Positions 9,001-12,000 of a DNA stretch of 12,509 nt are shown here, piece by piece (positions within the stretch are counted from its first letter, which is position 1; each line of letters begins with the position of its first letter). The DNA lies in the IMG/VR virus record IMGVR_UViG_2609460344_000006, positions 1 through 12,509 of that record; one strand, 5' to 3'. The position numbers were made by a program. This stretch comes from a virus (Duplodnaviria > Heunggongvirae > Uroviricota > Caudoviricetes).

Positions 9001-12000
9001 AGACTTTTTGTCAAACACATCTATCGCATCAAGCATTTTTTGCCCCGCAAGCTGCGGCAATGTCTCTAGATTCAAATGCCCAACCTCAACACCAGACTCT
9101 CTTTCGGCCAAATCAAGAAGCCAGATACGAAGCTCTTTAGCTATCTTGGTTCGCGACATCATGCCAATAAGGTGCGCCCCTCGAGGAGAAAACAATCGAA
9201 CCTGAGTGTAATCTATCATGCTGTTTTTATTACACTTCCTCACTTTGGTCACAATTGTCATGCTATCTGTAAACTCATCTTTATGACGATTGTAGATATT
9301 GGAAACCTTATTTGAATTCGCATAACCAAGCAGATCTGCCAATGCCTCAGCGGTAAACCAAATCTTCCCATCACCATTATCAAATGGAATCACGGTATTG
9401 TTTTTGAACGTCAGTTCGTTCATTGAGCGTACTCCTATAGAAATGAGCCTCGTTGCCCAGAAACGCCGCCCGCAGAGAGGTCGCCACCTATAACGACGGT
9501 TCTCCAAGGCTCATTTCTGTAAGGCTCTGCGATTTACATGCGCCGGGCATGGCGCAGATATAAAAAAACCACCAACGCGGTAAGCGCCAGTGGCTTATTG
9601 ATACAGCCTCAAATTAATTGCCAGCACCGAGGTACCCACCCACAGAAGTTTCCCCTCGTTTTGGGGTGAGCTAGTCAACATTTGCACTCCCCAGTTTTGG
9701 GGAGCTCAAACGTTCAACGATGATGCTGCAGATGCGTTCATACCGGCTTTACCTTTTAGTGATGAACCTTGTCACACAGGATTCCGGCCCACAGAAAGGC
9801 ACCGATCACCAAACCGGCATCCTCAAGGGTCATCCTGAAAGGTTCTGTGTTAATAAGTCGCGCGTGTGAAGCGCATTTACTGAGGACATAAAAAAGCCCC
9901 GCTTCTGCGAGGCATTTTCCTGAAAGTCACTTGTTAAATTTCAGTGAAGTTAAAATTATTTTAAGCACTGAGTCCTGATGTACTCCTGCAGGTAGTTAAC
10001 CTGCGCGGTTATCTTGTCGATTCCACTTCGGAGACGGTAATAATTGAGTTCAGCATCTGCTGTAAGTCTTGGGCTTTCTCCATCGCCCATGCTGCTGGCT
10101 CCGGTAGTTGACTTTGCACAGGTGGCGGCGACTTGCAGGCGCTTACGCCCAGCAGAAACATCAGCACGGAGACTTTCAATAGTCGCGTTAGCATCAGCAA
10201 GCTCCTTTGTGTATCTGGTGTCAAGTTCTGCTACATCACGTTGCCGCTTCTGCATATCAGCGATGATGGATGTGGCTTTATCGCGCTGCGCTTTGTAGGT
10301 AATCGCGTTATCACGGTAATGGTCTGTTGCCATCCACAGCGCACCACAGGCCACCAGCAGAATAACGATAAACGCGGAAAGCATTCGGTTTATGTTCACC
10401 CCAGCAACCCCGACGAAGACAACATCATCCAGGCCATGGAAAGAAAAAGAGCAACCAGCATTAGTGAAAATGAAATGCCGACAATTACACAGAGGATCTT
10501 CGCCAGCGTTATGAGTTTGTCTGACATGCTTAATCCTCCCTTCACGATTTCAACGCAATGACCAGTTTTGCCAGCCCATACAGCATCGGGGACACAGCAA
10601 CACCGACCGCCACCCACTTAATGGCAAAAGCCAGTGCTCTGCTGATGTCATCAGTTACAGGCGCTTTCAGTTCAAGGCCATTTTTCATAGTCAACCTCAA
10701 CAGAATTCGTTTATACTTCGCCATGTTCTCCCTTGCCTTACTCAAGGTCAGAAACACAAAACCCCGCTTGGTGCCAACAAACGGGGTTTTTACTTTTATT
10801 CACTTACGTTTCGCCAGTTCGCAGGATTTCGTGTTATCCGCCCGCGTGGCCATACCTTATTTTTCAGCAAAATATTCTGCTTATCTGTCGATTCCCCAGC
10901 ACGCCAGCGCGCTCTCCTGGTCACGACGGGATACCTGACCATAACAGTTATTTGAGCGGATACGGCAGTCTCTGCCACCGTCCTTAATCCACCAGCGAAT
11001 CGCCTCACACGCTCCCCTGCGATCACCTGCATTAATTCGTTTATAAAACGTCGACGGGAAACACTTACCGGGACCAATGTTGTACGGACAGAATGACGCG
11101 ATCCCCGCTTTCTGGGGTTCACTCAATGGCACTCTGATGTTTTTCTCCACCCATGCCAGCGCCTTATCACGCTCAATGGCGTTAACCCGGTCGCATTTTT
11201 CCTTCGACAACTTCATGCCCGGAACGACAGGTTTGCCATCCACCAGGATGGCACCGCGGCAGATGGTCCAGATACCCGCGCCATCACGGTATGCCGTGGT
11301 GTGGTTACCTTCCTTTTCATCCAGAAACTGGTCGAGGATTTCAGGCGCAGGCGCACCTGCGGCAATCAGCGCCAGAACGGCAGCCGACAGGCCGTATTTG
11401 ATTTTGGTGTTCATGGATATTTATCAGGGTTTATCGATTTCAAATCCCTGGATATGTTAAGTCTTCAGGCCAGCGGTGGAGTCTTCAGAGAACCAGTAAT
11501 TATTCCCGGTAGTTTTCCTCTGTAGGTTATCAACACATCCTGCGCCTCTAAAATTACGGGGCGCTTTTCCGGCAACGGACCATCCCCTTCACATAACCCG
11601 GCAGCAACATCCATGAAAAACTGCTTCGCCTGCTTTTTCGCCTCAGCTTCGTAAAACTCCAGCGTGGCATCTTCAGTACGGTCAAGACTAATCGCCACAT
11701 CTGGCAACAACAGTGACGGATACCCACCAATTTCCAGTGCCACAGTAACAGTAATCTTATTCGGGTAATTATTTATCCCTTTAACAACCAGTTCGTATTT
11801 TTTCTTCATCGCTTTACTCTCCCCGCGCCGCCTTACGACGGTCCTCTCTGATTTTGAAATACAGGTTAGTCAGATATGTCAGCAGCCCAAACAGCAGACT
11901 CCCCAGTACGCCTATTGCCGCCCACTGAGACGGGGAAACCCTGTCCAGCAACTGCAGGAACCAGTAGCCCGTTCCCACCGCTGACGTGGTGTATGACACA

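Follow-up and report, generated by a model that had tools for sequence, protein, structure and literature searches.

What does a small soluble protein do when its gene lies between those of a holin and an endolysin? The question is raised by a 12,509-nucleotide (nt) stretch of DNA, referred to here as the window, that comprises positions 1 to 12,509 of the IMG/VR virus record IMGVR_UViG_2609460344_000006 (Caudoviricetes) and represents the late region of a lambdoid prophage. An earlier inspection of this stretch, made without database searches (the sequence-only reading), had singled out an open reading frame (ORF) of 114 codons between the holin and endolysin genes, described its product as soluble-looking and its start as tightly linked to the holin stop, and pointed out that ydfR occupies the same position in the Qin prophage of Escherichia coli. 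It proposed that the arrangement may be a recurring but functionally unexplained feature of cassettes that combine a pinholin with a signal-arrest-release (SAR) endolysin. The ORF is found at 11465..11809 on the minus strand (114 codons plus the stop codon), where the quoted peptide is encoded exactly, and it is almost certainly an accessory gene of the lysis cassette that belongs to the YdfR (DUF1327) family.

Length by itself is no evidence for a gene here because the window contains many spurious ORFs of more than 100 amino acids (aa). The gene is real because its match to the Pfam family DUF1327 (PF07041), which the sequence-only reading had named for a domain search, is decisive (E value of 2.4e-45; 153.1 bits with a cut-off of 25; residues 1 to 112 aligned with positions 1 to 92 of the 93-position model), as are the match to PHROG 406 (E value of 4e-64) and the hundreds of homologs recovered. 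The protein is identical to RefSeq entry WP_000731267.1, named “YdfR family protein”; E. coli cM8a carries the same DNA at 98.8% identity with that annotation, and E. coli FDAARGOS_536 has a 100% identical DNA copy of the gene. Phages H-19B and BP-4795 and many other Shiga toxin (Stx) 1a- or Stx2c-converting phages encode ORFs that are 97.4% identical to the window protein and are either unannotated or labeled “hypothetical.” The supposition that there is no functional gene, only a chance or decaying ORF, could appeal to the spurious long ORFs of the window and to the frameshifted or truncated copies seen in the family, but it has to contend with the Pfam score, with the presence of the family in at least 3159 of 5426 complete E. 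coli genomes (at least 58%), with a ratio of nonsynonymous to synonymous substitution rates (dN/dS) well below 1 in the N-terminal domain, with a confidently predicted fold, and with the accumulation of the E. coli K-12 protein upon expression (PMC13232886). The homology and selection data effectively refute it, and its probability is negligible.

Public annotation contains the gene along with its family name and position, so the finding as such is already known. What the present analysis adds is a quantified positional constancy, a presence/absence indel, the way in which ydfR takes over the ribosome-binding site, a layout of one constant N-terminal domain with variable tails, and a probable deletion origin of the 114-aa form. 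A Pfam scan of 26 YdfR-family members at an E value of 10 returned DUF1327 only, NCBIfam has no model for the family, and a sequence-profile search of the PDB gave chance matches only.

The best-known relative, YdfR of E. coli K-12 (b1555, P76160), encoded in the Qin cryptic prophage, belongs to the same family, occupies the same slot with the same 4-nt gap, and has the same predicted N-terminal domain. Its similarity to the window protein (BLASTP E value of 5e-23, 47% identity) covers residues 1 to 74 only, with 38% identity overall, and its tail is unrelated (103 aa in total, ending in HHKYL, versus 114 aa). The gene order given by the sequence-only reading holds up: the Qin cassette reads essQ-ydfR-rrrQ, the same order as in the window. 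The ydfR stop codon in Qin overlaps the lysozyme start codon (ATGA), whereas in the window the two are separated by a 50-nt spacer. In H-19B and BP-4795, essentially the same gene as in the window is found in the same cassette, with no difference of substance; in H-19B and many other phage records, the ORF is simply left unannotated.

The position of ydfR was examined in 93 loci with enough flanking sequence, drawn from phages, prophages, and IMG/VR contigs; the holin in these loci is of the phage 21 type. In the window, the holin stop codon (11814-11816) is followed after 4 nt by the ydfR start codon (GGGGAGAG-TAA-AGCG-ATG), in line with the tight linkage noted earlier, and the ydfR stop codon lies 50 nt from the lysozyme start codon at 11414. 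The holin-ydfR gap is 4 nt in 91 of the 93 loci and 3 nt in the other 2, and ydfR fills the slot between holin and lysozyme in all 93. The lysozyme start is 307 to 1259 nt from the ydfR start codon, most commonly 395 nt, as in the window. The arrangement is therefore a recurring one, and neither a lack of homology to YdfR nor a lack of positional conservation, the two outcomes that would have spoken against the original proposal, is observed. Exceptions to the slot are known elsewhere in the family. In one lineage, ydfR follows an unrelated 101-aa holin of the PF16080 family and has its own ribosome-binding site, with the lysozyme gene still downstream; on contig L098, which does not come from E. 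coli, a 71-aa member that consists of the N-terminal domain only (503-718, plus strand) directly follows Rz/Rz1. These two arrangements show that ydfR is linked to the lysis cassette as such, whichever holin allele is present. The L098 contig has no close match among E. coli genomes; its member is the most divergent one (42% identity) and is followed by a convergent 186-aa ORF without a Pfam match.

The family as a whole is narrow: among 1.84 billion representative proteins, its members form only 51 clusters at 50% identity. Among one-genome-per-species representatives, it is confined to Escherichia and Shigella, apart from two matches in metagenome-assembled genomes (MAGs). The two contigs, from a “Veillonella parvula” MAG (L007) and a “Bacillota bacterium” MAG (L009), carry an E. 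coli Qin-like holin-ydfR-lysozyme cassette, and their YdfR proteins are 99% and 84% identical, respectively, to that of K-12. These copies probably represent binning contamination. In complete E. coli genomes, up to 8 places per genome match the gene.

The gene is not a fixed part of the cassette. Holins of the phage 21 type were found in 434 phage records, compared to 101 records with DUF1327. In phages Stx2a_F723 and POCJ13, a holin gene whose product is 99 to 100% identical to that of the window is followed directly by the lysozyme gene, with the 4-nt gap retained, and the alignment with Stx2a_F723 reveals a clean indel of ∼395 nt (ydfR, the spacer, and the first lysozyme codons) within ∼95% identical DNA. 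Because near-identical holin genes join lysozyme genes directly in these phages, ydfR is optional and dispensable for holin-endolysin lysis.

The same alignment, together with direct inspection, places the Shine-Dalgarno sequence of ydfR (GGGGAGAG, 11817..11824, minus strand) within the last holin codons, as follows from the ydfR start codon lying only 4 nt past the holin stop. In cassettes without ydfR, the lysozyme start codon takes this GGGGAGAG-TAA-nnnn-ATG slot, so that the Shine-Dalgarno sequence embedded in the holin gene serves lysozyme. In the window, lysozyme is instead preceded by a 50-nt spacer or leader (11415..11464, minus strand) that ends in GATAAATATCC-ATG and, as comparison of upstream sequences showed, has no Shine-Dalgarno sequence; the leader GATAAAT(A/G)TC(C/T)-ATG, likewise devoid of one, is conserved in every ydfR-containing cassette examined. 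No significant RNA structure was detected in the spacer (z score of −0.45), and no promoter-like site was found beside ydfR on the coding strand.

This take-over suggests an explanation in which the effect of ydfR is mainly in cis: by occupying the strong holin-coupled ribosome-binding site, the gene would lower or uncouple endolysin translation, and its protein would be a tolerated passenger. The precise exchange of start codons in the slot and the conserved leader without a Shine-Dalgarno sequence speak for such a role, as do the high plasticity of the ydfR 3′ end (the last residues of K-12 YdfR, HHKYL, are encoded by the lysozyme leader), the weak recent constraint, and the frequent pseudogenes. 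A mere spacer, however, would not be expected to show invariant residues and purifying selection on the N-terminal domain across deep allele types (with saturated dS), nor should forms reduced to that domain keep an intact ORF, and the K-12 gene yields a stable protein with specific binding partners (PMC13232886). A predominantly cis-acting role is considered rather improbable.

Four family proteins are holin-YdfR fusion ORFs of 173 to 187 aa (P0067, P0089, P0010, and P0085). In P0067 and P0089, the junction (...KAARESNSMTQ...) is what a single-G deletion in the GGGG run that closes the holin gene would produce, and P0010 and P0085 are joined differently. These fusions could be sequencing errors, real mutants, or products of slippage. 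As stand-ins for a holin-YdfR complex in structure prediction, natural fusions were rejected, given a shallow alignment and a short linker.

The protein itself is soluble, as had been surmised, with no transmembrane segment and no signal peptide detected, a maximal 19-residue Kyte-Doolittle mean of 1.18, and an isoelectric point (pI) of 5.5. The structure prediction called for by the sequence-only reading gave a confident N-terminal domain (codons 1 to 73; 11591..11809, minus strand) with a beta-beta-beta-alpha fold and a disordered tail (codons 74 to 114 plus the stop codon; 11465..11590, minus strand). In the AlphaFold2 model, strands 5 to 14, 18 to 27, and 38 to 43 pack on helix 50 to 72, and the predicted local distance difference test (pLDDT) values are 72 to 91 for this block and below 50 for residues 74 to 114. 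The invariant columns of the family are V21, R44, E46, L50-E-F-Y-E-A55, A57, F65, A69, L72, and E74, and the window protein carries the invariant motif R44-x-E46...L50-E-F-Y-E-A55-x-A57. No significant structural neighbor of the N-terminal domain was found in the PDB or BFVD. A double-stranded RNA-binding domain was considered and rejected, as the window protein did not show an alpha-beta-beta-beta-alpha fold with a match to the dsrm profile.

Family members differ in their C termini, which accounts for lengths of 72, 103, 104, 114, 176, 183, 268, and 287 aa; forms of 71 to 73 aa that consist of the N-terminal domain only exist with an intact ORF. The Qin, mEp460, and Evi forms either lack the tail of the window protein or have another one. 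The long forms (176, 183, 268, and 287 aa; PHROGs 2091 and 1085) share the N-terminal domain and the middle segment (residues 74 to 112) with the window protein but have an additional helical or larger C-terminal extension, for which no Pfam domain was found, and a convergent antisense ORF. In the prediction for a 183-aa relative, the same N-terminal domain is followed by a disordered segment (residues 70 to 112) and two low-confidence C-terminal helices; thus, the 74-112 segment is still disordered within the longer protein. In one allele, the 196-aa P0001, a stretch of approximately residues 11 to 92 is duplicated in tandem within the protein.

Alignment of the 114-aa form with the 176- and 183-aa forms leaves a gap of ∼490 nt that extends from after codon 112 to just upstream of the lysozyme leader. 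The long forms have CCACC at both breakpoints, the junction in the window is at 11474|11473, and codons 113 and 114 (Leu-Ala) and the stop codon of the window gene arise at this junction. The sequences suggest that the 114-aa form is a deletion derivative of longer forms generated via CCACC microhomology. The convergent antisense ORF would have been lost with the same block. At long-form loci, this ORF encodes 86 to 91 aa and overlaps the ydfR 3′ end (L034, 2964-3239; L004, 4500-4766; L099, 3465-3725; L014, 2958-3218; all on the minus strand); the one in PhiR12_1 is annotated as “DUF1823 containing protein,” and two such ORFs have no significant Pfam match.

Exchange has also occurred at the domain border. 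At least three allele types of the N-terminal domain are joined to the same middle segment, and, between the window gene and those of L003 and L004, dS is 1.8 to 2.4 in codons 1 to 73 and 0.12 to 0.22 from codon 74 onward, a contrast that marks codon 73/74 as a recombination boundary. Between deep allele types of the N-terminal domain, dN/dS is 0.18 to 0.27, which indicates purifying selection; values for the tail are 0.3 to 1.15, on small counts. Polymorphism within the lineage of the window shows only a weak skew to third codon positions, pointing to weak recent constraint, and many family copies are frameshifted or truncated. The invariant columns, low dN/dS, N-domain-only forms, and variable tails together identify the N-terminal domain as the conserved, selected unit.

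What this unit does is best approached through the K-12 protein, the subject of the only direct functional data (PMC13232886, RNA Biol 2026). A two-hybrid screen recovered ydfR codons 1 to 72, full-length YdfR gave a signal with Rne 1-597, FLAG-tagged Rne 1-598 coeluted with Strep-YdfR, and DNase-resistant nucleic acid (RNA) copurified with YdfR, whose overexpression was nontoxic (PMC13232886). The description of the arrangement as functionally unexplained is thus no longer strictly true, given the reported RNase E binding and RNA copurification. The reading that we favor, tentatively and as a possibility still short of an even chance, is that the window protein is a late cytoplasmic product, cotranslated with the holin, whose N-terminal domain binds RNase E and/or RNA and which is not a lysis effector. 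The gene is transcribed with the late operon and translated from the Shine-Dalgarno sequence at the end of the holin gene; under this reading, the protein would be made in the cytoplasm alongside the holin late in infection. Its functional unit would be the conserved beta-beta-beta-alpha domain of ∼73 residues, which, by homology with K-12 YdfR, would bind RNase E at its catalytic N-terminal half, RNA, or both, and the C-terminal tail would be a disordered, swappable appendage. YdfR could then modulate RNA processing or decay, for example, that of the long late transcript, and would take no part in the disruption of the membrane or cell wall. We infer that the window protein, with its 47% identical N-terminal domain, keeps the RNase E binding of its K-12 relative and that this binding matters in infection.

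This proposal is the only one with experimental support, and it is also in keeping with the retention of ydfR in the lysis cassette where the exact slot changes (after the other holin family and after Rz/Rz1). Phage proteins that act on RNase E are known: T4 Srd, T7 gp0.7, and phiKZ Dip bind or modify the enzyme (PMC4980113), and Srd, like YdfR, targets its catalytic N-terminal half (PMC4980113, PMC13232886). None of them has detectable homology to YdfR. They are encoded by early or middle genes, come from virulent phages, and have been demonstrated to affect RNA decay, unlike YdfR, whose overexpression barely moved the transcriptome (PMC13232886).

Several observations weigh against RNase E or RNA binding as the role of the window protein. 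Overexpression of ydfR altered a very small number of transcripts (PMC13232886). The binding data, obtained with overexpressed protein, concern K-12 YdfR only, which is 38% identical to the window protein (47% in the N-terminal domain), and the coelution of Rne from lysate could have been bridged by RNA. A mildly acidic protein (pI 5.5) would be an unusual direct RNA binder. The weakly constrained polymorphism in the window lineage, the frequent frameshifted or truncated copies, and the broken HNH gene of this prophage suggest that the contribution of the gene may be small. Finally, the location of an RNase E binder between holin and lysozyme has no explanation.

That location is the natural starting point for a different proposal, in which YdfR is a cytoplasmic regulator of lysis timing. 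Through contact with either the membrane-tethered endolysin or the basic, cytoplasmic C-terminal tail of the pinholin, it would make triggering later or sharper, following the logic of T4 RIII or P1 LydB. In all 93 flanked loci, the ydfR start codon lies 3 to 4 nt past the holin stop, coupling its start to the holin end, and the gene stays within the lysis cassette, including that with the second holin family, in all but one divergent locus; that member, however, sits after Rz/Rz1, at a distance from the holin. The conserved, exposed acidic residues E46, E51, and E54 could face the holin tail, but the N-terminal domain alleles recombine freely with respect to holin alleles, as in L005, where a Qin-type N-terminal domain accompanies a holin 100% identical to that of the window. 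Covariation of holin and N-terminal domain was rejected as a test of interaction, since the genes are adjacent and recombinants exist. In a genome-wide screen, the K-12 ydfR deletion of the Keio collection scored for envelope leakage (PMC3879167, supplement), a result for which polar effects of its kanamycin cassette on rrrQ, the lysozyme gene downstream, could account. T4 RIII provides a precedent: this small cytoplasmic antiholin also binds ribosomal protein S1 and has a reported connection to RNA-binding domains and RNA decay (PMC9409239). The likeness is one of logic only: there is no sequence relation (hhalign probability of 0.3%), the T4 context and holin type differ, and YdfR is not known to bind a holin. 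The search for known antiholins and lysis regulators, by hhalign with T4 RIII, by transmembrane prediction, and by fold searches of the PDB and BFVD, gave no relation, with LydB and RI not compared directly. In addition, cassettes with an identical holin work without ydfR in well-known lytic Stx2a phages. A role in lysis timing is regarded as unlikely.

Binding of RNase E and control of lysis timing could both apply, as shown by T4 RIII, an antiholin that also binds S1 RNA-binding domains (PMC9409239). A speculative combination, to which we assign only a small chance, is that the DUF1327 N-terminal domain, as a module of the lysis cassette, binds either RNase E or RNA-binding domains of the S1 type and, being cotranslated with the holin, couples late RNA turnover to the timing of lysis, with interchangeable C-terminal modules. 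Such coupling might extend to the translation or decay of the endolysin message that has been displaced from the holin ribosome-binding site. By analogy, the module would be a temperate-phage counterpart of T4 RIII or Srd in logic, not in ancestry.

The variable C termini could also be read in a manner unrelated to lysis, with ydfR as a moron-type gene of benefit to the lysogen or directed against host defense or stress, its N-terminal domain anchored to a host partner and its C termini providing diversity. Besides the constant domain with its many alternative extensions, the convergent small antisense ORF of the long forms and the up to 8 gene-matching places per genome would suit this role. 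Yet, none of the PADLOC defense models was matched by the short or long forms, the extensions have no Pfam domain, no promoter-like site adjoins the gene on the coding strand, and ydfR lies inside the late operon, where it shares the translation signals of the holin. Overexpression of ydfR from K-12 or CFT073 raised the streptomycin minimal inhibitory concentration 3-fold (PMC12924614), ydfR was preferentially transcribed by sigma-S in vitro (PMC3141248), and its induction by cold stress is reported at second hand (as cited in PMC13232886); these high-throughput hits are single and unvalidated, and there are almost no ydfR RNA-seq reads in growing K-12 (PMC13232886). A moron function is doubtful, to a degree that makes it the least probable of the roles considered for a functional gene.

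The interest of the gene lies in its neighbor: ydfR adjoins the holin, whose triggering times lysis and hence the release of toxin and phage. It is present in many Shiga toxin phages and in the majority of complete E. coli genomes. Should phage alleles share the reported binding of K-12 YdfR to RNase E and RNA, temperate phages would contribute this family to the small set of phage factors known to modulate RNase E. The clean optional indel means that natural, isogenic-like pairs with and without ydfR exist, and residues 1 to 73 are the unit on which function should be sought. As ydfR shares translation signals with holin and lysozyme, any deletion affects the reading of the phenotype unless these signals are respected.

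The genes identified in the window are all on the minus strand except for a short DUF3950 ORF (6748..7008, plus strand). In the order of transcription, a DUF826 gene, the holin gene, ydfR, the lysozyme gene, two small membrane ORFs, and Rz/Rz1 are followed by genes with Bro-N and KilA-N domains and then by those for HNH, small terminase, large terminase, a protease-capsid fusion, and portal proteins. The upstream neighbor of ydfR encodes a 71-aa class II holin of the phage 21 type (11814..12029, minus strand; PF04971, E value of 9e-33), a member of the P21 S family in which Met1 and Met4 provide a dual start (MYQMEK...); both features are those expected of the holin in a pinholin/SAR endolysin cassette. 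The downstream neighbor encodes a 177-aa lysozyme (10881..11414, minus strand; PF00959, E value of 1.3e-23) with a SAR-like N terminus: residues 8 to 24 (GLSAAVLALIAAGAPAP) are Gly/Ala rich and weakly hydrophobic (Kyte-Doolittle maximum of 1.74), and the catalytic triad reads E35-x8-D44-x5-T50. By its sequence, the protein is a putative SAR endolysin of the phage 21 type, which would be tethered to the membrane and released. The pinholin/SAR endolysin setting is thus supported by sequence for the window, but the ydfR slot is not tied to one holin family, as the PF16080 lineage demonstrates.

The lysis cassette ends with the Rz i-spanin gene (9956..10399, minus strand; PF03245, E value of 2.1e-36) and the embedded Rz1 o-spanin gene (10009..10224; PF06085, E value of 9e-19). 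A strong terminator-like hairpin (10758..10790, minus strand), with a 13-bp stem and a T-rich tail, lies directly 3′ of the lysozyme gene, within the late operon. Between lysozyme and Rz are two small minus-strand ORFs, 10542..10724 (60 aa) and 10396..10527 (43 aa, with a hydrophobic stretch), which have no Pfam or NCBIfam match and are labeled hypothetical in RefSeq; in Stx2a phages, an antirepressor gene fills this slot.

The HNH endonuclease gene (6401..6766, minus strand), located beside the gene for the small terminase subunit, has an in-frame stop at codon 25 (about 6692-6694), where the otherwise identical 121-aa ortholog from E. coli cM8a has Glu. With this gene broken, the prophage may be packaging defective, which would fit relaxed selection on prophage accessory genes. 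Further along, a single 645-aa ORF (1887..3824, minus strand) combines a prohead protease (Peptidase_S78) and a major capsid domain in one protein, and the portal gene (311..1675, minus strand) comes after it, giving the order TerL, protease-capsid, portal, unlike that of HK97.

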